A stretch of 64,000 bases of DNA from Gemmatimonadota bacterium (lineage in GTDB: Bacteria; JBHIER01; G020348925), in contig CP070758.1 in NCBI GenBank assembly GCA_020348925.1, positions 4,897,775 through 4,961,774 on the forward strand, read 5' to 3'. The notes under the pieces are model-generated. The model searched no databases, was not told the origin of the DNA, and saw only the letters and a program-made list of their open reading frames with translations. Positions 1,813 through 17,486 of this stretch are shown piece after piece. The translations under genes and the position numbers were made by a program. Numbering within the stretch: position 1 is the first letter of the stretch; each line of letters starts with the position of its first letter.

Positions 1813-3136
1813 CAGTGCTGTCCGGTTGTTTGAGATTGTGTTTCCAGTAAATACTTTCTCTGTAATTGGTTGAAGCAAAATCAAAGAGGGATCGATTTGA
1901 ACTGAGATTTTTCATATTTTGCCATTCCACTTCTTCATAGAAAGGAATGGCAAATGAACTCAGGTCAAACAGTGTTCTCTCAACTGACATCACATGTACC
2001 TGTTAAATCTTTTCGACGATGTGTAGAACGTTACCATGGCCATTACAAAGTACAAAGCTTTTCGTGTTGGGACCAATTCCTGTGTATGGCATTTGCTCAA
2101 ATTACCTATCGCGAAAGTTTACTTGACATTGAAGTCTGTCTTCGTTCAATGCAGGGCAAGTTATACCATATGGGGATCCGAGGCAAAGTATCACGAAGCA
2201 CCCTTGCTGATGCGAACGAAAACAGAGACTGGCGTATTTATGCAGACTTTACTCTCCTTCTCATCGATATTGCCAGGAAACTCTATCAGAACGATGATTT
2301 TGGTGTGGAACTCGATGAAACAGTCTATGCTTTGGATTCAACAACCATTGATCTGTGCTTGTCCGTTTTCCCATGGGCTCTTTTTCGAAAAAACAAAGGA
2401 GCGATAAAAGTGCACACCCTATTGGATCTGCGCGGTAACATACCATCTTTTGTCTGGATCACTCATGCAAAAGTTCATGATGTGAACATCCTTGATGAAC
2501 TCATCGCAGAGCCGGGAGCTATCTACCTGATTGACCGAGCCTATATTGACTTTTCCAGGCTATACGAGCTAAATGAAGCTCAAGCGACTTTCATTACCAA
2601 AGCAAAATCTAATTTTCAATGTCGTCGTCTCTACTCTCGTCCTGTCGAAAAAACAACAGGACTCCGATGTGATCAAACTGTTGTCCTCTCAGGATTCTAT
2701 TCATCAAAGGATTATCCTGACAAGATGCGTCGGATCAAATTCTTCGATGCTGATTCCCGGAAAACGTTTGTCTTCTTAACCAATAATTTCAAACTTCCAG
2801 CACTGACCATCTGTCAATTGTTCAAGTGCCGCTGGAATGTAGAAATATTTTTCAGGTGGATCAAACAAAATCTACGTATCAAATCCTTTTATGGCACCTC
2901 CCTGAATGCTGTTAAAACTCAAATATGGATTGCCATTGCGACATATGTCCTGGTAGCTATTGTGAAAAAACGACTCAAAATAGACCTCAGTCTTTACACC
3001 TTTCTGCAGATTCTCAGTGTAACTGCTTTTGAAAAAGTCGATATCTCTCAACTGGTTACTGATCATGATTACAAACACCTGTATGACCAAAATCCTAGCC
3101 AACTGAATTTATTCGACTTATAACCGGACACTACTG
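1813..3136 (+). mobile_element. IS4-family insertion sequence
   Basis: Terminal inverted repeats CAGTGCTGTCCGGTT (1813-1827) and AACCGGACACTACTG (3122-3136), 13/15 match, enclosing a transposase. No target duplication seen. Confidence 0.9.
1954..3123 (+). CDS. IS4-family DDE transposase (DUF4372 + DDE_Tnp_1)
   Basis: LDSTTIDL, IDRAYIDF and RWNVEIFFRWIKQNL motifs; 389 aa, intact. Confidence 0.92.
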   Translation: MNSGQTVFSQLTSHVPVKSFRRCVERYHGHYKVQSFSCWDQFLCMAFAQITYRESLLDIEVCLRSMQGKLYHMGIRGKVSRSTLADANENRDWRIYADFTLLLIDIARKLYQNDDFGVELDETVYALDSTTIDLCLSVFPWALFRKNKGAIKVHTLLDLRGNIPSFVWITHAKVHDVNILDELIAEPGAIYLIDRAYIDFSRLYELNEAQATFITKAKSNFQCRRLYSRPVEKTTGLRCDQTVVLSGFYSSKDYPDKMRRIKFFDADSRKTFVFLTNNFKLPALTICQLFKCRWNVEIFFRWIKQNLRIKSFYGTSLNAVKTQIWIAIATYVLVAIVKKRLKIDLSLYTFLQILSVTAFEKVDISQLVTDHDYKHLYDQNPSQLNLFDL

Positions 3137-3711
3137 ATATCAAATATGTTTTAGCTAAGGGAGAACTCATCTGGAGATCGAAGGGGCCTGTGACTTATAG
3201 CTGGAATCTTGGAGAGCAGCAAAAAGGTTCTATCGGCTGCAGACTGATAAGAGATTCGGAGGTACCAACAGCTTTGGAGCTCACGTATAGCTCTACGAAT
3301 AAATTCACAGGAGAAAAGAGAGACTTTAATTATAGCGTTTCTATTGACTCAACTCCCTGCAATTACGGAGGTCAAAGGTATTGGTTTATCTGCCCATTAA
3401 TCTTAAATGATCGGTCTTGTCACCGTCGATGCCGAATTCTCTATTTACCTTCAGGAGCTTCATATTTTGGATGTCGTTTATGCTACAATCTGACTTACAG
3501 AAGTCGTCAAGAACATAGAAGTTGGAATTACGAGAATGCCAGACTCTTTAATAAACTCCGAAAAGTGGAAAATAAATATATACGAGCAAAAAGGCCTTGG
3601 ATAAGAGAAAAATATCGCCGACAGATCGTTGCAACGAGGGCAGGCATAGAACAAATGTGTAAGACCCTTGAAGTAAAGTTGCTTAAAACTTGTAAGGACT
3701 TGGAGAAGTAA
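3137..3711 (+). CDS. Cys-rich conserved hypothetical protein of mobile elements, probably 5'-truncated by IS4
   Basis: GGQRYWFICP...CHRRCRILY...FGCRLCYNLTYRSRQE; the frame is open from the IS4 right end. Confidence 0.65.
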
Positions 3712-3810
3712 TGAAAAAATCTGAAAAAGGCGAAAAAAGCTTTACTTTTTATTATTTCCAAGTTATATTTATAACCATGAAAACGATTGAACATAAGAAA
3801 GGAGAGAAAA

Positions 3811-3972
3811 ATGCCAAGACCAAAAAAGGACATACGTGAAGGGCGTATGATTCATGTACGCCTCTCAGAGGAGACTCATAAACACCTCCGAATACGAGTT
3901 GCTGAGCTTGATACTACAATCCAGGATTGGGTAGCCGTACTCATAGAACGTGAGCTCAAGCGAAAGGCGTAA
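3811..3972 (+). CDS. Small ribbon-helix-helix DNA-binding protein
   Basis: RBS AAGGAG; MPRPKKDIREGRMIHVRLSEETHKHLRIRVAELDTTIQDWVAVLIERELK has an RHH pattern. Confidence 0.7.
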   Translation: MPRPKKDIREGRMIHVRLSEETHKHLRIRVAELDTTIQDWVAVLIERELKRKA

Positions 3973-4004
3973 ACAATGATAAAATATCATAGGAGGGTAA
4001 TCCT

Positions 4005-5525
4005 ATGAGAAGAAAACGAAAAAGCGTCGAGAGAAAAGACAATATAGGCAAATCAAAGGTGGTAATTTATGCCAGGGTGAGCTCCAGGGATCAGGAAAAG
4101 GAAGGTTTTTCTATCCCAGCCCAATTGAAGTTGCTTGAAGGGTATGCCAGAGAACACGACTATAAAATTGTCGAAAAGTTTATTGATGTGGAGACGGCAA
4201 AAGAGGCCGGTAGAGGTGACTTCAATAGAATGGTGAAATTCCTTGAAAACACTCCTGGCGTAAAGATTATCCTGTGTGAAAAGACCGACCGCTTGTATCG
4301 AAATTTCAGGGATTATGTTACTATCGATGATCTTGATTTAACTCTCATTTTTGTGAAAGAAAATTCCATTCTTAATAGCGATTCCCGAAGTCATGATAAA
4401 TTCATCCACGGCATTAAGGTTCTAATGGCCAAGAATTACATCGATAATTTATCTGAGGAAGTCAAGAAAGGCATGTTGGAAAAAGCCGAACAGGGTCACT
4501 GGCCTTCGTCTGCACCGATAGGATACATAAATAGTCCAGAACACACACTTGAAGTTGATATAGTCAGAGCACCAATCATTCGCAGAATGTTCGAACGGTA
4601 TGCTAAAGGGAATTTCCCTATTCATAGAATAGTTGACCTTGCTAACGAGGAAGGCTTTGTCTCACGAAAATACAAAAGAAAAATGTGCAAAGATGTCGCA
4701 TATCACCTACTTAAAAATCCTATATATTACGGAGATTTTCGATGGAAAGGTAAAATGTACAAAGGGAACCACCCCCCGATTATCAGCAAGGACCTATTTG
4801 ATACAGTCCAGGAAGTGATGAACAATCGGAGCACACCGAAGGTGAAGAAGGAAAGATTTGCCTTCCGAGGCCTCATGACTTGTGGTCATTGCGGGTGTGG
4901 AATTACGGCTCAAATTCAGAAGGGACGATACGTGTATTATCGCTGCACAGGCTTTAAAGGGAAATGCGGACAGCGCTGGGTGCGTGAGGAGGAATTGGAC
5001 AGACAATATGCCGAAATTGTCAAAAAGATTAAAATCGATGAGGAGGTTGTAGAATGGGTTAAAAACGCCCTTAAAACGAGCCACAAGGACGAAAAACAGT
5101 ATCATGAGGGGTCTATACGGACCTTAACCCGAAGATACGAAGAAATCCAGCGTAAAATCGACAAGATGTACGAAGACAAATTGGAGGGTCTCATTGACGA
5201 CGACCTGTGGACTCGGAAATTTGAGTCATGGAAGGAGGAGCAAGGGGATATCCTCCGAAATATTGAACAGCACAAGGAAGCAAATCGGAGCTACTTCGAA
5301 GAGGGTGTTCAGATTTTAAAACTGGCGAATAAGGCGTATTCTCTATATGTTAGACAAAATTTGTGGGAAAAACGAAAATTGCTTGATATTTTACTTTATA
5401 ACTGCTCCATGATCGACGGAACTCTTTGCCCCACATACAGAAAACCCTTTGACATGCTTGCCAAAGGGCTTGAAATAGAGAACTGGCGGGGCCGACCGGA
5501 TTTGAACCGGCGATCTCTGGCTTGA
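4005..5525 (+). CDS. Large serine recombinase (integrase)
   Basis: YARVSS catalytic motif, EKTDRLYRN, recombinase domain, zinc ribbon CGHCG...YYRC...C, coiled coil. The 3' end overlaps tRNA-Asp. Confidence 0.93.
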   Translation: MRRKRKSVERKDNIGKSKVVIYARVSSRDQEKEGFSIPAQLKLLEGYAREHDYKIVEKFIDVETAKEAGRGDFNRMVKFLENTPGVKIILCEKTDRLYRNFRDYVTIDDLDLTLIFVKENSILNSDSRSHDKFIHGIKVLMAKNYIDNLSEEVKKGMLEKAEQGHWPSSAPIGYINSPEHTLEVDIVRAPIIRRMFERYAKGNFPIHRIVDLANEEGFVSRKYKRKMCKDVAYHLLKNPIYYGDFRWKGKMYKGNHPPIISKDLFDTVQEVMNNRSTPKVKKERFAFRGLMTCGHCGCGITAQIQKGRYVYYRCTGFKGKCGQRWVREEELDRQYAEIVKKIKIDEEVVEWVKNALKTSHKDEKQYHEGSIRTLTRRYEEIQRKIDKMYEDKLEGLIDDDLWTRKFESWKEEQGDILRNIEQHKEANRSYFEEGVQILKLANKAYSLYVRQNLWEKRKLLDILLYNCSMIDGTLCPTYRKPFDMLAKGLEIENWRGRPDLNRRSLA

Positions 5526-8310: not shown

Positions 8311-11300
8311 TTAATTGTTATTCTTTCCTCTCAGAAAATCGATCATCGGCTGTGTGACAAGGGGGACCACATCGCCGATCATGTGCGGCATGAGGTTGTC
8401 CATCACCTTGGGCATGAGATCGGGCATCTGTTCTTTCATATAATCGGGCATAGGAATCCGCTCGGCCACACGTTCTAGCATGGTGGGCATAACTTTGGGC
8501 ATCATCATGGGCAGCAGCCGCGGAAAGAGAACCGGAAACATCGGTTTCATCATCTCAAGGGCCAGCGGTACCTTTCCCATAAAGCGCATCATCGAACCCA
8601 TACCAAAGGGCATGGCATCAATGAGTTCCGACCACATCGTGCCCATGAGATCGGCAAAACCCTGGGGTGTCATGAGGGCAATCATCTTTTCGAACACAGC
8701 CCACTGGGCCTGGACTTCCGGGTTCGGATCAGGGAAATCGTAGCCCAGGGCCGAGGCGGCAAACCTGGCCAGATCCACAGTTTCTACGGGAACATCCCTC
8801 TTCTCGGCGCTGACCCGAAGCTGGAACTCACAGCAGGGACAGAGGGCCAAAACCTTATCGGCACCGGCCTCCACCGCCTCTTCAAGACGGGATTTGCCGA
8901 TGTCGTGGGCCACAGGCGGATCTTTGATCAAGGTCAGAACAGATCCGCAGCAGTGGGCCTCTTCGTGATGGTGGCTCATCTCCACAAATTCCACATTCGG
9001 AATGGCCTTGATGACATCCCGCGGTGGCTCATACACACCGGAGGCGCGACCGATGTGGCACGAATCGTGCCAGGTGACTCTCATTTTCGAACCTTCCGAA
9101 GATGTTGAAACTTCGGAAGTCTTGGGGAAGTTGAATTCACCTGCCTTGATTTTCTCTGAAAGCACCTCACTGTAATGCCTGGCTGTAATGTCGTAATCGA
9201 TACCCACTTTCTCGGCCCAGTCAGGATACACTTGTCGCCACATCATATCGCAGGCCGGACAGGAACTGATGACCGTATCGGCACCCGTGTCCCTGACGGC
9301 TTCGATGTTCTTCTTCATGGTTTCGACAAAGAGGTCCCACTTGCCGGCCACCAGCATCGGTGTCGCACAACAGTTCTCATTCTTTCCCACAATTGTAAAA
9401 TCAACATTGGCGGCGCTCAGCAGCCGTACGCTGGCCTGGGCAATATCATGTTCAACATAGCTGGCCGTGCAGCCGGCAAAATAGACATTCTTCGATGTTC
9501 GTCCGGGTCCGTGCTTGTCCATCAGGTCTTCCGGGAACCATTCGATTCGATCCTTTCGATATCCGGCCCAAATATCTCCTTCGGCTTCCAATGCCGCTGC
9601 CATCATCTCAAAGGGCGGAAACGTCATTCTCTTCTCTTCCTGGATAAGTTGGCCGCGCAGCTTCATCCATGACGGTTCAATGGGCAAGGCCGCTGAACAC
9701 CGAAGATTGCACATCTCGCACGTTGTGCAGACAAGCATGGTATCGATCATAAACTGGTTCCATTTTTCTCGACCTTCAATATACTCCCGCAACCAGTACC
9801 ACTTGCCCCGGGGACTCTGGCTCTCCCAGCCGCGGCCATAAAACTGGTCGCATTCATCAATGCAATATCCGCACTGGGAACAGCTGTAGGCGTACCAAAC
9901 CACATCGGCGGGAATGTTCCGAACCGGCTGGGTGTGACGCTCGCCCAGCTTGGGGAAGAAGCGGTTGCCCAGTGGTCGCATCAGTGGCTCGAAAGCGGTG
10001 GCCATTTTGACGACGGTACTGACCAATCCGCCGGAAATGACCTTACCCGGGTTCATAATCCCCTTGGGATCGATCTGGGCTTTGAATGCACGCAGTTTCT
10101 CAACTCTCTCTTTTCCCAAAATGGCATCTGCCTTCTTTGCGAAGTACAACCCGGTGGCGTATGGCCGGCCGCCGTGCTCCTCTGCGATTTTCATCAATGA
10201 CAGTGACAGCCCAAAGACAAAGTTGTAGCCGAACTCGCGCTCGTCACTGGGAATGAATCCCAAAACGACCACCTCAGGCTGACCATCTTTCCCCTCGCGT
10301 ATAACAACACCCTCCTTGACCAGCGGTTGTTGAATCTTGTTCTCAATTTCATCCATCACAACCCCGAGGTTGGACAGAGGAACGACGACTTCCGCTGGCA
10401 CGAGGGACGGTCCGAGACGCTTGACAATCATCAGTTTGAACCGATTCTCCCACTCGTGTTCGGCAATACGCTCGCTGAGCTCCTTGGCTTTGCACAATTG
10501 GAGCATTCTCTGGATATGTGGCCGAACGGATCCGCTGTCCTTGCTGCGAAAGGCCAGTGTCATAATATACATAACCGGGAGGAGAACACGCTCCTCGGCA
10601 GGGTGCCCGTGGTGCTCCATGAGCGGCGCCTGATTCTTGAGCTCGGCCATCTTCGGGTTGATAAAAGAGAGTGACCAGATAGGTATATCGGCGCTGATCA
10701 GGGATTCGATCAACCACTGCAAGCCGCGCGATTCCGGACAACCGATGGAAATCACGTCAAGATCCTCAAGAGGTTGGACCTTCAGAGTGACCTCAGTGAT
10801 GAGGCCCGTAATGCCTTCCGCGTCGGCGATGAGATCCAACTCGTTATCGGTGAACTCATTCACATCGCCTGTGGGCAGCACGACCCGTGCACTGAGAACA
10901 TTGTCTTTGTACCAACCCGCCTCGTACGAACCGAATCCGGTCCCTCCCTGCGCCAGCCAGCCCCCGGCTGTGGATGAAGGATAACTGCTCGGATAGAGCC
11001 GCAAGGTGAGGTCATATTTTGCCAGTTCTCTGTCGAGTGATTCCCAAACCATCCCAGCCTCGACTGTGGCGGTTTGCCCTTCAGGATCGATGTTAATGGC
11101 TCGTTTCATCCGGTAGAAATCGACCACGATACCTTTTTGGGTGGGAATAACCCCTCCGTAACCGGAGGACGCTTTGGCCCGAGGTGTCAGAGGGATGTTT
11201 TGCTCCCCCGCCCAGCGAACGAGCTCCACGACTTCCCCCTCATTGATCGGTTGAACAACAGCGTCGGGAGTTGTGTCGCCGATCAAAGGCTTGAACAGGC

Positions 11301-11415
11301 TTGGCATGGCTGCAATGTCGTGCCCATAGAGCTTCCGTTCAATCCTTTGAAAAGCGACTCGATCACCGAATGTTTCTCTGAGATATTCTTTTTGCTTTCG
11401 TGTCAATTTTCCCAT
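8311..11415 (-). CDS. FAD-binding/Fe-S oxidoreductase (GlcD-GlcF-like fusion)
   Basis: FAD_binding_4 N-terminus, MNPGK, two 4Fe-4S motifs, two CCG domains, Met-rich tail. Confidence 0.88.
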   Translation of the reverse strand: MGKLTRKQKEYLRETFGDRVAFQRIERKLYGHDIAAMPSLFKPLIGDTTPDAVVQPINEGEVVELVRWAGEQNIPLTPRAKASSGYGGVIPTQKGIVVDFYRMKRAINIDPEGQTATVEAGMVWESLDRELAKYDLTLRLYPSSYPSSTAGGWLAQGGTGFGSYEAGWYKDNVLSARVVLPTGDVNEFTDNELDLIADAEGITGLITEVTLKVQPLEDLDVISIGCPESRGLQWLIESLISADIPIWSLSFINPKMAELKNQAPLMEHHGHPAEERVLLPVMYIMTLAFRSKDSGSVRPHIQRMLQLCKAKELSERIAEHEWENRFKLMIVKRLGPSLVPAEVVVPLSNLGVVMDEIENKIQQPLVKEGVVIREGKDGQPEVVVLGFIPSDEREFGYNFVFGLSLSLMKIAEEHGGRPYATGLYFAKKADAILGKERVEKLRAFKAQIDPKGIMNPGKVISGGLVSTVVKMATAFEPLMRPLGNRFFPKLGERHTQPVRNIPADVVWYAYSCSQCGYCIDECDQFYGRGWESQSPRGKWYWLREYIEGREKWNQFMIDTMLVCTTCEMCNLRCSAALPIEPSWMKLRGQLIQEEKRMTFPPFEMMAAALEAEGDIWAGYRKDRIEWFPEDLMDKHGPGRTSKNVYFAGCTASYVEHDIAQASVRLLSAANVDFTIVGKNENCCATPMLVAGKWDLFVETMKKNIEAVRDTGADTVISSCPACDMMWRQVYPDWAEKVGIDYDITARHYSEVLSEKIKAGEFNFPKTSEVSTSSEGSKMRVTWHDSCHIGRASGVYEPPRDVIKAIPNVEFVEMSHHHEEAHCCGSVLTLIKDPPVAHDIGKSRLEEAVEAGADKVLALCPCCEFQLRVSAEKRDVPVETVDLARFAASALGYDFPDPNPEVQAQWAVFEKMIALMTPQGFADLMGTMWSELIDAMPFGMGSMMRFMGKVPLALEMMKPMFPVLFPRLLPMMMPKVMPTMLERVAERIPMPDYMKEQMPDLMPKVMDNLMPHMIGDVVPLVTQPMIDFLRGKNNN

Positions 11416-12832: not shown

Positions 12833-14062
12833 TCAGGAATAATTGAGCAACCTCTGCTCTCCTTTGAGTTTTCTTTTCTCCGTAAGATCCTGACTCACTT
12901 CCAATGTTCCGAGGTATCCATCATCCTCATCTCGAAGAGCAAAATATTCTATGTGTATAAACCGACCATCCAAATTGATCCAGAAAGCAGCTCTATCCTG
13001 TTTTCCACATCGAAAATCATCGAGAATCTGGTGGACAACGTGAACACTCGATGGCGGGTGACACAGTTGCACTTTTCGGCCAAGAATAGCCCGAGTCCGT
13101 GCGAAGATGCGATCTTTCCCTTGAGTAAAATATCGAACCGTATCCTCTTTGTCGACAAAAGTCACGTCAAAGGGGATCGTGTTGAGCATGGCTATCAATT
13201 CAATCACATTGAAGCTTCCGCTGGGGAGTTGAATTTTCTCTTCTTCGACAGTCAACTCTCTTTTTGCGACAACTCCCTCGGGCTGCCACACATCCGTCGG
13301 ATCGTACAAGCAATAACCAATCTCAATACTCTGGATGGAGATCTCATACCACTCTTCGTCTGTCAATGTATCGAGGCACATTGGAAAGAGGATTTCTTCC
13401 TCCTTGTGTATCATCTCTTCCACTGCCGTAGAAGCGGGCTTGAAAGTACGCTCTACTGCTTTTTGAGCTTCTCCCACCTCCATCCCATCTGAACCTGCCA
13501 AAGTATCGAGTGCCCTTTTCAGCATGCCTCGAACCTCATCATGTTTACCCCACATGACCTTCGGTGGACCCGTGACACCATGTTTCTCGAGAAATGGAAA
13601 GAGAAGGTTCTCTTTCCTCATGTAATGTTTATCCACATCCATCAATGCGTTGAAATGTGCACGAATTTTGGCAAAGGGTTCCCGTGCATTATCCCGATCT
13701 TTCAATTTCTCCACTTCTGAATACAATTTCTCCAAAGAAGAAATTTCCCTAGCCAGAGCCCTATTCTCTTGAATGAACGTATGGACAGGATGTCCGGAGG
13801 GTGCCGTCTTGGCACCTGCCTGATCGAGAATACCCTTCAAAGCCGCAGTATGGACATCGCAGAGTCTCAGAACCTCCTCCTGGGGCAACCCCTCAGAGAT
13901 AAGCTCCTGCTCAACCTCAACCACATCGCCATAGGGAATCTGTCCCAGTATTCTGACGAGTTGCTTCTTCACCTCTTCAGGTGCTTCCCCCTTATGAAGC
14001 TGAAGAATCATGTGCTTCAGCATTTCCTTTCTTTTTTCTGCATTCTCAATAAGTTCACTCAT
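12833..14062 (-). CDS. DUF438/hemerythrin/PAS-domain protein
   Basis: LCDVH, GHPVHTF..EN, HY.RKENLLFP, PPKVMW.KHDE, CHPPSS. Confidence 0.88.
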   Translation of the reverse strand: MSELIENAEKRKEMLKHMILQLHKGEAPEEVKKQLVRILGQIPYGDVVEVEQELISEGLPQEEVLRLCDVHTAALKGILDQAGAKTAPSGHPVHTFIQENRALAREISSLEKLYSEVEKLKDRDNAREPFAKIRAHFNALMDVDKHYMRKENLLFPFLEKHGVTGPPKVMWGKHDEVRGMLKRALDTLAGSDGMEVGEAQKAVERTFKPASTAVEEMIHKEEEILFPMCLDTLTDEEWYEISIQSIEIGYCLYDPTDVWQPEGVVAKRELTVEEEKIQLPSGSFNVIELIAMLNTIPFDVTFVDKEDTVRYFTQGKDRIFARTRAILGRKVQLCHPPSSVHVVHQILDDFRCGKQDRAAFWINLDGRFIHIEYFALRDEDDGYLGTLEVSQDLTEKRKLKGEQRLLNYS

Positions 14063-14167: not shown

Positions 14168-15763
14168 CTATTTAAAGGAAGTCAACTCCACCTTCTGTCG
14201 CTTATACAACTCTTTCAGATCGTAATTCAGCGTGTCCATCAGCTCCTGGTGGAGCTCAGGGAGGTCGAACTGACGGCCAATCTCTGCCTCTCGATTCTCG
14301 TAAAGCTTGGTGTACAAATCCCACTGTTTTTCGGTCAACAGATCATTCTCGTGTGCGGCTTTCACATTGCTGTAGATCGTCTCCCAGTAATCGGGAATCC
14401 TGTCCATGGCCATGTCACCCCGGAGCGCCATGGCCGATGGTCCCCATGATCCGCCTGGGATATCATATAATGGGTAGAGCTTCATGAACTTATTAGGATC
14501 CTTGCTCTCTCGCCACATTCTGGCCTCAGGAACACCGTGTTCAGCGCCGTACTGGATAAGTTTCGCAAGATTTTCTTGAAGTTCCCAGATGCCGTGCCAC
14601 TGGGTGTAGTCGGCTCCCATCATCTCCGCCCCATGGCGGAAACGGCGACCCTCGTGATGCCAGTTCTTGTAAGCAATGTGTTCCTGTTCTTCATCGTAGC
14701 CCACCACCGGCCACCCTGTGATCGCCTTGCCTTCGAACTCAAATTTGTCCGTCTTCACAACATCGTGCTGCCGGAGTAATCTCATCCACTTGATTGTGGC
14801 CTCCCAGATTTCATTGTAGAGCAGATTACACAGGTCCGCAGTCAACAGGTAGCGATCGACGAAGGATCGAGCATGGCACTGATAGCAGACGCCCTCCATT
14901 CTCCGGCGTTTCTCCTGCCAGGAAAAACCGCCCCAGTATTCCTGCGTGCGCACGGAGAACGGCGCCTGACTCTCCCAGGTCAATCGATCACTCACATTGT
15001 GCGTAAAATGATCGTTTGTCAACGTGCCACTCATGTGACATGTGGCACAGGTCGGTCCGGTAAATGTCACAGGCTCACCCGGCTCGTAATCCCAGTCATA
15101 ATCCGAAGCAAAGGTGCTGTAAATATTTCCGTGCTTTGATTCGAGGAAAATCTCGATATGGGGATGATCCGGTCCGATGTGACATTCCCCGCAGGTCTCC
15201 GAATGCCGGGCCTGGGCGATATCGAAGCGATGCTTCGAATGGCAGGCGTCGCACTCGCCGATGCTCTGATCGGGCCAGTAATTTCCGATGTGATGGCATT
15301 GCTCGCAGCCGTGCTTGGTAGCCACTGTTGGCTCAAAGACATTTCGATCGGTCCCCTTGAGGGCCATAAAAGACTGACTGAGAACATGTTTGCTGTTGGC
15401 AAACTCTTTCACCTGAGTCTCATGGCACCCTTGACAATCCTTCGGTGTCGGATGTTTCCCGATAACGACCCTACTCTCGGGGCACCTCATCGCATCCCAT
15501 TCACCCTCCTGGGCTTCATGGCATTCGATACACCCGATGCCCATTTCCGCGTGTTCGCTCAGTTTCCACTCTTCGACCAGTTTTGGCGCCACACCCTGCT
15601 TCTCGTGACAATGGATGCAATCTCTTGTCGAACTGCTGATCTCGATCTCCGGTCGACGAAGGCGGGTTTTTTCCATTTCCACACCGGCAACAATCATCAA
15701 AACGACAATAATAAGTGTCGAAAATATCCCGATCAGCCACTTCTGTCCCGTCACAGTATCCAT
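14168..15763 (-). CDS. Octaheme hydroxylamine-oxidoreductase (HAO)-family cytochrome c
   Basis: Eight CxxCH motifs; CGECHIGPDHP; WHHEGRRFRHGA.MMGADYTQWHG; N-terminal membrane anchor. Confidence 0.88.
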   Translation of the reverse strand: MDTVTGQKWLIGIFSTLIIVVLMIVAGVEMEKTRLRRPEIEISSSTRDCIHCHEKQGVAPKLVEEWKLSEHAEMGIGCIECHEAQEGEWDAMRCPESRVVIGKHPTPKDCQGCHETQVKEFANSKHVLSQSFMALKGTDRNVFEPTVATKHGCEQCHHIGNYWPDQSIGECDACHSKHRFDIAQARHSETCGECHIGPDHPHIEIFLESKHGNIYSTFASDYDWDYEPGEPVTFTGPTCATCHMSGTLTNDHFTHNVSDRLTWESQAPFSVRTQEYWGGFSWQEKRRRMEGVCYQCHARSFVDRYLLTADLCNLLYNEIWEATIKWMRLLRQHDVVKTDKFEFEGKAITGWPVVGYDEEQEHIAYKNWHHEGRRFRHGAEMMGADYTQWHGIWELQENLAKLIQYGAEHGVPEARMWRESKDPNKFMKLYPLYDIPGGSWGPSAMALRGDMAMDRIPDYWETIYSNVKAAHENDLLTEKQWDLYTKLYENREAEIGRQFDLPELHQELMDTLNYDLKELYKRQKVELTSFK

Positions 15764-15903
15764 AATCTCGCCTCCTCATTTTGTTTCACTTAAGCATTTC
15801 ACCTTTTCATTCATCAATTATCAGTCCAGCCCCTGGAATCGAAGACGGGGTGCACTCCGGGCCCGAATCCCCTAACGTAACCTAACATACTCTCTATTCA
15901 AGA

Positions 15904-15930
15904 GATTCCGGGAGAAACCCGGAATGACAG
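15904..15930 (-). repeat. TGTCAT-tagged REP-like palindrome
   Basis: CTGTCATTCCGGG-TTTCT-CCCGGAATC, same tag as 27039 and 52252. Confidence 0.6.
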
Positions 15931-15960
15931 AGTAGAGAACGGTCAATTTTCGAACACGGT

Positions 15961-17019
15961 TCAATGCGGCGTCAATAGGATCTCTTTTGCAATGACCAGC
16001 AGAAAAATGAGAATTGCCGCTGCTCCTACAACATAGTGAATCTTCAGATTGGGAACGCGTTTCCCAATAAATTCATCGATAAAAGGCCAGAAGACGAAGA
16101 ACAGGCCAAGGATCATCAATACGGACATGCCGACCTGCATGGGCATCACTTTCAGAGCAAAATAGACAAAGATAAAATACCATTCCGGCTTGATATGGGC
16201 GGGTGTTACAGCGGGATCAGCGGGTTCTCCCATACCGGGCGGGGACATCACGGACAGCGTGCTGAGAACCGCCACGAAGAACAAGGTCAAAATAACAACC
16301 TTGAAAAAATGTTCCGGGTAGAAGGCGTAGAAGCCCTCCCCCTCTCTCCCCTCAAGCTCCGCCATACCGTGTAAACGCAGGATAAAAATATGGACGAACA
16401 TCAAGAAAAGGAGCAGCGGTGGCAGGAGGGTCACATGGAACGTGAAAAATCGTGTCAGTGTGTTCGCACTGACCTCCTCTCCCCCCCGGAAAAATTGCAG
16501 CAAGGCGTTTCCAATAATCGGTACCGACTTGACCGAGTTTGTGCCGACCGTCGTCGCCCAATAGGACACCTGATTCTGAATGAGCGAATAGCCTGTTAAA
16601 GATAATCCCAGGCAGATTCCCAACAAACCGACACCAATCATCCAGTTCAGCTCGCGGGGACGGCGATAGGCTCGTGTGAAGAAGACTCGAATGATATGGA
16701 GAATGAGGGCCATAATAAGCAGATTCGAGCCCCAGCGGTGAAGGCCCCGGATCCAGAAACCAAAACGGACCTCCTCCGTAATATACCGCACACTTTCATA
16801 GGCCATCTCAGGTGAAGGTATGTAATAAAACATCAGCAGGATGCCCGTAACAATCTGAAACATAATGAGAAGAAGAGGTGCGGCACCCGTAGCAAACCAC
16901 CATTTCTTATAGTGTAGGGGAATTGGCTCTTTGGCGAAGACCTTTTCACTAATTTCCACAAAACGGCCGTAGTCGATAGGAAATCGCTCAACGATCCACT
17001 CTTTGATCTTCATCGTCAA
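15961..17019 (-). CDS. Cytochrome b of a Rieske/cyt b complex (b6 and subunit IV parts fused)
   Basis: RGLHRWG..LHIIRVF, FHVT...VH (14 residues between these His), IKPEWY. Confidence 0.92.
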   Translation of the reverse strand: MTMKIKEWIVERFPIDYGRFVEISEKVFAKEPIPLHYKKWWFATGAAPLLLIMFQIVTGILLMFYYIPSPEMAYESVRYITEEVRFGFWIRGLHRWGSNLLIMALILHIIRVFFTRAYRRPRELNWMIGVGLLGICLGLSLTGYSLIQNQVSYWATTVGTNSVKSVPIIGNALLQFFRGGEEVSANTLTRFFTFHVTLLPPLLLFLMFVHIFILRLHGMAELEGREGEGFYAFYPEHFFKVVILTLFFVAVLSTLSVMSPPGMGEPADPAVTPAHIKPEWYFIFVYFALKVMPMQVGMSVLMILGLFFVFWPFIDEFIGKRVPNLKIHYVVGAAAILIFLLVIAKEILLTPH

Positions 17020-17486
17020 ATGACAGGCTCCCTTTTCCTGATGTGCACAAAAACGAGGGAACCCTCCACCAGGACTTCGAATTCATCCAACGGACGAGGA
17101 GAAGGACCCGCCAGGACCGTGCCGTCATTGTCAAACACCGCCTTATGACAGGGACAGTAGAATTGATTTTCCCTCTCTTTCCACTTTACAATACATCCAA
17201 GATGGGGACATACGCCGGAAAAAACTCTGAATCCTTCAGGCAGATGAGTGACAAAAACAGGCTTGTTTCCAATTGATATTTCCTTGGCTTTTCCGACAGG
17301 AATATCTTTCGCCTTCCCGACCAAGTATTTTGTATACTCTCTTTCCCGGGATTTTGGGAAAAGAAAAAGAAATCCACTCCGCAACACGAATAACCCTGTC
17401 AGAAGAATTCCCCCGACGGCCACGAATCCCGAAGCCAGAAAATATCTCCGGGACGTCCGGGTCGCTTTCTCTTCGTGATCGCTCAT
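17016..17486 (-). CDS. Rieske 2Fe-2S protein
   Basis: Tat-like SRRYFL anchor; CPHLGC and CPCH. Confidence 0.93.
   Translation of the reverse strand: MSDHEEKATRTSRRYFLASGFVAVGGILLTGLFVLRSGFLFLFPKSREREYTKYLVGKAKDIPVGKAKEISIGNKPVFVTHLPEGFRVFSGVCPHLGCIVKWKERENQFYCPCHKAVFDNDGTVLAGPSPRPLDEFEVLVEGSLVFVHIRKREPVI

Follow-up and report, generated by a model that had tools for sequence, protein, structure and literature searches.

Where do the electrons of a Rieske/cytochrome b complex go when the only c-type cytochrome encoded beside it is an octaheme protein of the hydroxylamine oxidoreductase (HAO) family? The question is raised by a locus in a stretch of 64,000 nucleotides, here called the window (C1:4897775-4961774, where C1 is contig CP070758.1 of assembly GCA_020348925.1), from a Gemmatimonadota bacterium. 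The genome is closed, measures 5.04 Mb and is 96.3% complete; its GTDB phylum comprises only two species among the genomes searched. Three genes follow one another on the minus strand of the window, encoding a Rieske [2Fe-2S] subunit (17016..17486, 156 amino acids), a cytochrome b (15961..17019, 352 amino acids) and an octaheme cytochrome c of predicted epsilon-Hao type (14168..15763, 531 amino acids). A first-pass annotation, made from the letters alone, had described a co-oriented Rieske protein, cytochrome b and protein with eight CxxCH motifs, and the three minus-strand reading frames lie exactly where it placed them. We propose, with a probability of roughly 0.6, that the three genes encode one menaquinol-oxidising respiratory device in which an octaheme protein of the epsilon-Hao type stands in place of cytochrome c1 or f.

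The octaheme protein carries the motifs of reductive epsilon-Hao

The octaheme protein matches the Multi-haem_cyto family (PF13447) with 79.4 bits against a cut-off of 21.9, and eight HAO-family chains of the PDB match it with E-values from 1.5e-25 to 2.5e-13, among them 4qo5 (1.5e-25), 6h5l (4.5e-18) and the HAO of N. europaea, 4fas (2.7e-17). Its score against the NCBIfam model of hydrazine dehydrogenase is 81 bits, with a cut-off of 900. A script count gives eight CxxCH and no CxxCK motifs, in keeping with the first-pass annotation. In an alignment of 23 sequences, with homologues 46-80% identical to the window's protein, all eight CxxCH triplets are invariant, and so is the binding motif of the catalytic haem (23/23). 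D199-H200 lie opposite Asp267-His268 of the N. europaea enzyme (HMMER alignment to 4fas, numbering counted from the printout) and are likewise invariant in all 23; the distal catalytic Asp-His pair is therefore retained. Ala267, which adjoins the invariant Gln266, lies opposite Tyr334 of the nitrifier HAO in the same alignment.

Further towards the C-terminus, M381 and W389 are invariant in 23/23 homologues within the motif MMGAD[YF]TQW (MMGADYTQW in the window), and Y386, three residues before W389, varies between Tyr and Phe. According to PMC8940962 (citing Haase et al. 2017), epsilon-Hao proteins are marked by a Trp in place of the cross-link Tyr, with a conserved Met eight residues upstream, and the Met-x7-Trp of the octaheme protein agrees with this signature. 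The initial claim that the Trp of ADYTQWHG replaces the cross-linking tyrosine thus stands in part: the motif is present and fits the published rule, but our own alignments stop short of Tyr467. The pattern is consistent with W389 occupying the cross-link position, a placement made by the published motif. On these sequence features, the protein is assigned to the reductive epsilon-Hao branch of the HAO family.

The chain begins with a hydrophobic helix at about residues 9-28, and residues 2-35 are helical in an AlphaFold2 model. The mean column conservation of this segment is 0.63, compared with 0.66 for the rest of the protein. Because the helix is conserved like the remainder of the chain, it is more readily read as a membrane anchor that the protein keeps than as a signal peptide that is cleaved off.

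Cytochrome b is b6-like and the Rieske protein apparently matched to menaquinol

The cytochrome b matches both PF00033 (164.7 bits) and PF00032 (39.2 bits), and is therefore a fusion of a b6-like four-helix part with a part resembling subunit IV. The closest solved chain is spinach b6 (6rqf_I, 1.3e-43), and the C-terminal part resembles subunit IV of the b6f complex (1q90_D, 8.9e-11); the score against an ExtP-type NCBIfam model is 210 bits, below the cut-off of 290. The b-haem ligands H94, H108, H195 and H210 and the quinol-site motif P278-E279-W280-Y281 are invariant across 26 homologues. The helix-D histidines are spaced by fourteen residues, which we take to be the b6-type spacing. In the alignment to 6rqf_I, Ala43 lies opposite the cysteine of spinach b6 that belongs to haem ci, and the window's protein does not carry that cysteine. 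Both motifs named at first pass, PEWY and the WFATG without the haem-ci cysteine, are read in the translation. A cysteine occurs at this position in 6/25 other aligned cytochromes b (L005, L009, L012, L028, L047 and L058). The family therefore seems mixed with respect to haem ci, the window and most others having Ala.

The Rieske protein (PF00355, 53.4 bits) has a twin-arginine signal (SRRYFL) followed by an N-terminal membrane helix. Its cluster boxes, CPHLGC and CPCHKAVF, follow the CxHxGC and CxCH patterns and include the disulfide cysteines, and R13, R14, F16, C93, H95, C98, C111, C113 and H114 are invariant in 28 homologues. The nearest solved chains are b6f-type and anammox domains (8hn2_A, 1.6e-19; 9rk4_A, 1.3e-18). 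At the Ala of the second box the alignments show Ser in 9rk4, Ala in 8hn2 and Gly in the Thermus chain 3fou, and at the Phe all three printed alignments show Tyr. The Ser and Tyr of high-potential clusters are thus missing from CPCHKAVF, as had been stated at first pass. These two residues are hydrogen-bond donors that increase the potential of high-potential Rieske proteins, according to mutant data. Read against such data, the missing donors fit a low-potential cluster matched to menaquinol. A MenA gene is present in the genome (118.1 bits, cut-off 102.15), and MqnA was not found there.

The three-gene order is conserved among relatives

At E <=0.001, 986 relatives of the octaheme protein are found in the database, and those with named hosts belong to Calditrichia, KSB1, Marinimicrobia, Melioribacteraceae and Bacteroidota. 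We fetched 83 loci, 3 of them from species genomes and 80 from metagenomes, of which 76 are distinct after removal of 7 duplicates, and searched them by tblastn with the window's proteins. Rieske and cytochrome b genes lie directly upstream on the same strand in 51 of the 76. Cytochrome b is upstream in another four, where the contig ends before a Rieske gene could follow, and two loci (L025, L076) have one or both genes downstream. Five loci (L053, L063, L077, L081, L084) have at least 1700 nt of upstream DNA and neither gene, and 14 are too short for judgement. Among the informative loci, those with enough upstream DNA, the three-gene order is thus kept in 51/57.

Eight loci carry cytochrome b split into b6 and subunit IV (L029, L030, L036, L038, L045, L048, L050 and L051). 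Six of these (all except L029 and L030) have a divergent PAS_10 kinase gene upstream and, directly downstream, a gene for a 171-amino-acid protein with no Pfam match; in L036 and L038 this is followed by an unassigned molybdopterin oxidoreductase.

In the window, the Rieske and cytochrome b genes overlap by 4 nt when the TTG start is used, and an ATG two codons later would leave a gap of 2 nt. The octaheme ATG is preceded by a GAGGAGG ribosome site and separated from cytochrome b by a 197-nt spacer (15764..15960, minus strand). A hairpin of 8 bp in the spacer lacks a clear T tail, and at the end nearest cytochrome b a single weak promoter-like match (15975..15946) reaches into it. The spacer was also considered as the site of a regulatory RNA or terminator, and this was rejected: the spacer contains no terminator-like site, and it folds no better than shuffled sequences (z = +1.33). 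The three genes are proposed to be co-transcribed.

Structure prediction of cytochrome b together with the octaheme protein, both supplied as alignments, gave a score of 0.45 (0.50, 0.41 and 0.45 in the separate runs), the best of three controls scoring 0.00. The runs share at least 95% of their contacts, and the partner pLDDT (predicted local distance difference test) is at least 85. In calibration, the mark was reached by 116/157 solved complexes and by 2/215 mismatched pairs, and scores of 0.60 or less were seen in only 18/157 solved complexes and in both passing mismatches. The pair passes the mark, but a score in this range raises the case for a physical association only slightly; the pass counts only because the conserved gene order had already favoured the pairing.

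The same observations can be read as a case of neighbouring genes whose products form no complex, the octaheme enzyme then being a separate periplasmic or membrane-tethered reductase served by a diffusible carrier, or acting on a substrate other than a nitrogen oxide. The long spacer and the low complex score would suit this arrangement, as would the five informative relatives without Rieske and cytochrome b, two of which (L077, L084) have a NapC/NrfH-type cytochrome gene nearby, and the molybdopterin oxidoreductase that adjoins some of the split-cytochrome-b relatives. We consider it improbable given the order kept in 51/57 loci with short gaps (mostly 27-112 nt), the conserved N-terminal helix, and a genome without cytochrome c1 in which the octaheme protein is the sole haem c gene of the locus, the reading-frame list showing no haem gene between or beside the three.

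The genome offers no other visible partner

No match to cytochrome c1 (PF02167) was found across the 5.04 Mb genome, cytochrome f not having been searched, and the first-pass statement that cytochrome c1 is lacking extends in this way from the locus to the whole genome. By tblastn, the genome contains a single Rieske and a single cytochrome b gene. Haem-copper oxidase or nitric oxide reductase (NOR) genes (PF00115) were not found in it, nor were NarG and NrfA in model searches; no NapA exceeds the cut-off (best 115 bits against 930, in a reading frame that contains an in-frame TGA), and there is no genome match to TIGR04246, the single NosZ model searched. Only nine reading frames in the genome have two or more CxxCH motifs. 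Since the genome lacks matches to cytochrome c1, an oxidase or NOR, NapA, NarG, NrfA and NosZ, the sole bc-type complex of this anaerobe has no visible partner except the adjoining octaheme protein.

One of these nine, at C1:1931008-1932549 and hence not in the window, encodes another octaheme protein of the HAO family (L002; 513 amino acids, eight CxxCH). It is 25% identical to the window's protein and solitary: its N-terminus resembles a signal peptide, no gene for a redox partner lies nearby, and the sequence around its catalytic region closely resembles PDB 4qo5 by eye. At C1:4230276-4231619 there is a molybdopterin-oxidoreductase frame of 1006 amino acids with one in-frame TGA, possibly a selenocysteine enzyme; reading frames with 11 and 4 haem motifs lie about 9 kb from it at C1:4219523-4222373.

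In relatives, neighbourhoods of the module suggest nitrogen-oxide respiration

For the genomic context of the relatives, flanking reading frames were clustered and cluster representatives scanned against Pfam, at the 71 loci with a full-length octaheme frame. The module is nap-linked, with napA, D, G and H directly upstream, in 22 of the 71, and nrf-linked, with nrfH-nrfA upstream, in 6. Another 23 show only Rieske and cytochrome b in the fetched flank, and in 20, many of them on short contigs, neither is seen. Behind the module there often come genes for molybdenum-cofactor synthesis, for a PAS_10 histidine kinase paired with a sigma-54 regulator, and for two small proteins. The small proteins have no Pfam match, are mostly encoded directly downstream of the octaheme gene, and measure about 203 amino acids (18 loci; representative L042:6665-7276) and about 171 amino acids (14 loci; representative L079:2287-2802); the window has neither.

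The nap clusters beside the module consist of napA, D, G and H, with no NapB or NapC among their annotated reading-frame clusters, and NapC/NirT-type genes occur only in nrf-linked loci and in loci without Rieske and cytochrome b. This composition leaves room for a different role of the octaheme protein, chiefly that of an electron wire: it would substitute for cytochrome c1 or f and feed other periplasmic reductases, NapA in the nap-linked relatives and molybdoenzymes or multihaem proteins here, with catalysis secondary. Caldithrix, too, is described as lacking NapB and NapC in the accessible part of PMC5317091, and the window's genome has four molybdopterin-family reading frames besides other multihaem frames. 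A mere wire would hardly be expected to keep its catalytic Asp-His pair and catalytic-haem motif in 23/23 homologues, the genome has no NapA, and the closest relatives, L003 and L004, carry stand-alone three-gene modules. We therefore regard a wire as highly improbable.

These relationships come from a quick maximum-likelihood tree, midpoint-rooted, for which a careful search is unfinished. The window groups with L004 and L003, both stand-alone modules (SH-aLRT, the Shimodaira-Hasegawa-like approximate likelihood ratio test, 99), and two nap-linked loci form the sister group (97). The module is 71-80% identical to the L003-L005 loci, and 78-80% to the loci from metagenome-assembled genomes labelled Zixibacteria and Ignavibacteria. 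The UvrA proteins of the L003-L005 genomes (G004, G002, G003) are 68-71% identical to that of the window. The metagenome-assembled genomes G002, G003 and G004 bear the labels Zixibacteria, Ignavibacteria or no phylum, despite this UvrA identity. Lateral transfer of the module was considered and set aside, the difference between 78-80% module identity and 71% UvrA identity being too small.

In the six nrf-linked loci (L034, L042, L052, L066, L067 and L073), nrfH-nrfA lie directly upstream of the Rieske, cytochrome b and octaheme genes. The presence of nrfHA beside an epsilon-Hao-type enzyme suggests that the two have different roles. One such role could be detoxification, in which the module would clear hydroxylamine, nitric oxide (NO) or nitrite diffusing from neighbouring sediment microbes without supporting growth. 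A genome without nitrate reductase, NrfA, NosZ (TIGR04246) and NOR would suit this role, as would its one Hcp/prismane gene (581.5 bits), the hemerythrin/PAS protein with a faint likeness to RIC/YtfE encoded directly downstream of the module, and the coexistence with nrfHA in the six relatives. A Rieske/cytochrome b complex is, on the other hand, a costly device for the purpose: it is an energy-conserving quinol oxidase, here the genome's only one, and the nap linkage in 22/71 relatives points to respiration. Detoxification is accordingly unlikely, though we take it seriously.

Proposed mechanism and its weak points

We postulate that menaquinol is oxidised at the PEWY quinol site. The first electron would pass from the low-potential Rieske cluster into the octaheme protein's chain of haems, on the periplasmic side, and nitrite would be reduced at the five-coordinate haem with ammonium as the likeliest product; instead of nitrite the substrate could be hydroxylamine or NO, and instead of ammonium the product could be NO. 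The second electron would return via the two b haems, and reduction would therefore be coupled to the proton-motive force, unlike in NrfH-dependent nitrite ammonification. The first-pass annotation had proposed a Q-cycle-coupled quinol:nitrite/hydroxylamine/NO reductase, and this is the reading best supported by the motifs, the synteny in 51/57 loci, the nap and nrf context and the want of another outlet; to the predicted physical association, the complex score of 0.45 adds little. In its strictest form, the catalytic octaheme enzyme would itself be the c-type subunit, docked via its N-terminal helix, and the reduction of nitrite, hydroxylamine or NO would be directly Q-cycle-coupled and electrogenic. 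We put this form forward tentatively, at slightly short of even odds.

Several points weigh against the proposed respiratory device. The substrate and product assigned to the Rieske-linked clade are carried over by analogy from other branches of the HAO family. The canonical nrfHA pair lies directly upstream in six related loci, and the octaheme enzyme is therefore not needed there for nitrite ammonification and may act otherwise. Enzymes of the HAO family are trimeric and bc complexes dimeric, a mismatch of stoichiometry for a fixed complex. For the anammox complex, AlphaFold3 yielded no reasonable model with the HAO-like subunit, according to the accessible part of PMC12954380. Within our own data, the alignments to N. 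europaea HAO, by phmmer and by the 23-sequence profile, end at chain residue 409, before Tyr467; the C-terminal 210 residues of the octaheme protein, used as query, matched no HAO chain; and the AlphaFold2 model of the octaheme protein is poor (mean pLDDT 55.2, the haem domain mostly below 50). The window's 197-nt spacer exceeds the gaps before the octaheme gene in relatives with a fused cytochrome b (27-183 nt, mostly 27-112 nt). Finally, the genome is without every known nitrate reductase, and nitrite would therefore need an external source. Because nrfHA coexists in six relatives and nitrate reductase is absent here, we keep the physiological role open.

Should the proposed device operate as described, nitrite reduction would conserve energy via a Q cycle in very widespread sediment and subsurface bacteria, among them, going by the names in their records, Calditrichia, KSB1, Marinimicrobia, Ignavibacteria, Zixibacteria and Bacteroidota. 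Nitrite ammonification would in this way conserve energy by a route that the NrfH-dependent system does not have. Metagenome genes labelled 'hydroxylamine dehydrogenase' would then mark nitrite reduction, not nitrification, and the only bc-type complex of this genome would be a self-contained terminal reductase that operates without a nitrate reductase or oxidase.

Genes flanking the module

Directly downstream of the module, 105 nt after the octaheme gene and co-oriented with it, begins a gene for a 409-amino-acid protein (12833..14062, minus strand) that combines DUF438 (PF04282, 79.3 bits), a di-iron hemerythrin domain (PF01814, 70.3 bits) and PAS_10 (PF13596, 97.3 bits). Its likeness to TIGR03652, the model of the RIC/YtfE di-iron proteins of Fe-S repair, is faint (E 6.6e-6, far below the cut-off). 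It is a possible fourth gene or sensor of the module, weakly associated with it. A conserved fourth gene was rejected: the window's DUF438 protein and the upstream outer-membrane protein lie beside the module in none of the fetched loci. Only the PAS_10 part recurs by the module in related loci, within histidine kinases paired with sigma-54 regulators, and PAS_10 sensors may control the module.

According to Pfam, the genes upstream of the module encode an outer-membrane channel (PF13557), an HMA protein, a YwiC-like protein, a methyltransferase and a ferredoxin; on the downstream side, the DUF438-hemerythrin-PAS_10 protein is joined by an ArsP-type permease and a large FAD/Fe-S/CCG protein. 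These flanks offer little nitrogen context. The gene of the YwiC-like membrane protein (PF14256; 18877-19743, minus strand) overlaps the small HMA-domain frame, and ywiC of Bacillus is a neighbour of nar genes. The large protein, at 8311-11415 on the minus strand, joins an FAD-binding oxidase to a 4Fe-4S dicluster and two CCG (heterodisulfide-reductase-like) domains in one chain of 1034 amino acids. Further along, at 1954-5525 on the plus strand, a DDE transposase (DUF4372 and DDE_Tnp_1) and a large serine recombinase lie in DNA with a G+C content of 0.40-0.42, compared with about 0.5 nearby.

Comparison with known systems

The epsilon-Hao of Campylobacterota has a partner of the NapC/NrfH type. 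In the window, the predicted partner is Rieske/cytochrome b, and the octaheme protein has a conserved N-terminal membrane helix. The two share the Met-x7-Trp motif, whose Trp replaces the cross-link Tyr by the published rule (PMC8940962, in part), and reductive chemistry on nitrite is reported for the Campylobacterota enzyme (as cited in the accessible part of PMC5317091). Nap-hao clusters without Rieske/cytochrome b are described for Deferribacteres in the corresponding part of PMC6896113.

The nearest solved structure by sequence is PDB 4qo5, deposited as a 'hypothetical multiheme protein' (1.5e-25 with the single sequence, 5.6e-41 with the profile), which we take to be IhOCC, an octaheme cytochrome of Ignicoccus hospitalis. 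This HAO-family protein has a C-terminal motif that aligns with MMGADYTQW. It differs in that the alignment is partial and places a Phe opposite W389, and the second octaheme protein of the genome, L002, is closer to it by eye.

The pairing of Rieske/cytochrome b with HAO-like proteins had been noted at first pass as known from anammox Planctomycetes. This holds for the anammox complex (PMC12954380) and is incomplete, since Caldithrix abyssi (PMC5317091) and Nitrospira (PMC6311188) have it as well. In Kuenenia stuttgartiensis, the Kuste4569-4574 complex contains a Rieske protein and a b6-like cytochrome b in association with an octaheme HAO-like protein whose presumed activity is nitrite reduction. 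The accessible part of PMC12954380 further describes a separate subunit IV, a hexa-/octaheme cytochrome that replaces cytochrome f and a putative NAD(P) oxidoreductase, and it gives high potentials of 303 and 335 mV for the Rieske protein. In contrast, the window's module consists of only three genes, its cytochrome b is fused, and its Rieske box lacks the Ser and Tyr donors; neither an NAD(P) oxidoreductase subunit nor an extra hexa-/octaheme cytochrome was found among the module's neighbours by Pfam scans of the flanking reading frames. In Nitrospira, an HAO-superfamily octaheme cytochrome c (OCC) beside two Rieske/cytochrome b genes is read as a quinone-linked nitrite reductase (PMC6311188, in part). 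It is similar to the window's module by description, and differs in its proposed assimilatory role in the nitrogen-assimilation region of an aerobic nitrite oxidiser. No biochemical isolation or structure of a Rieske/cytochrome b/epsilon-Hao complex was found in the literature searched, subscription journals lying mostly outside it.

Much closer to the window's module than the anammox complex is the cluster of Caldithrix abyssi, where Cabys_2558, 2557 and 2556 encode a Rieske protein, a cytochrome b and an epsilon-Hao beside nap (Kublanov et al. 2017, PMC5317091). As far as its accessible part goes, that article describes a cultured nitrate ammonifier without NrfA, whose octaheme protein lacks the cross-link tyrosine, and proposes Rieske/cytochrome b as a quinol-oxidising and possibly electrogenic complex that passes electrons to epsilon-Hao, either directly or through NapM. 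By this published description, the same three kinds of gene are adjacent in both organisms, and the window's octaheme protein shares 51-65% identity with proteins from Calditrichia. The Caldithrix module lies within a nap (napMADGH) cluster of a bacterium growing by nitrate ammonification; the window's module, in contrast, stands alone with no adjoining nap genes, in a genome without NapA, NarG and NrfA. The design and the hypothesis are thus already in print for non-anammox bacteria, and the window adds to them a minimal, stand-alone example rather than a new principle.

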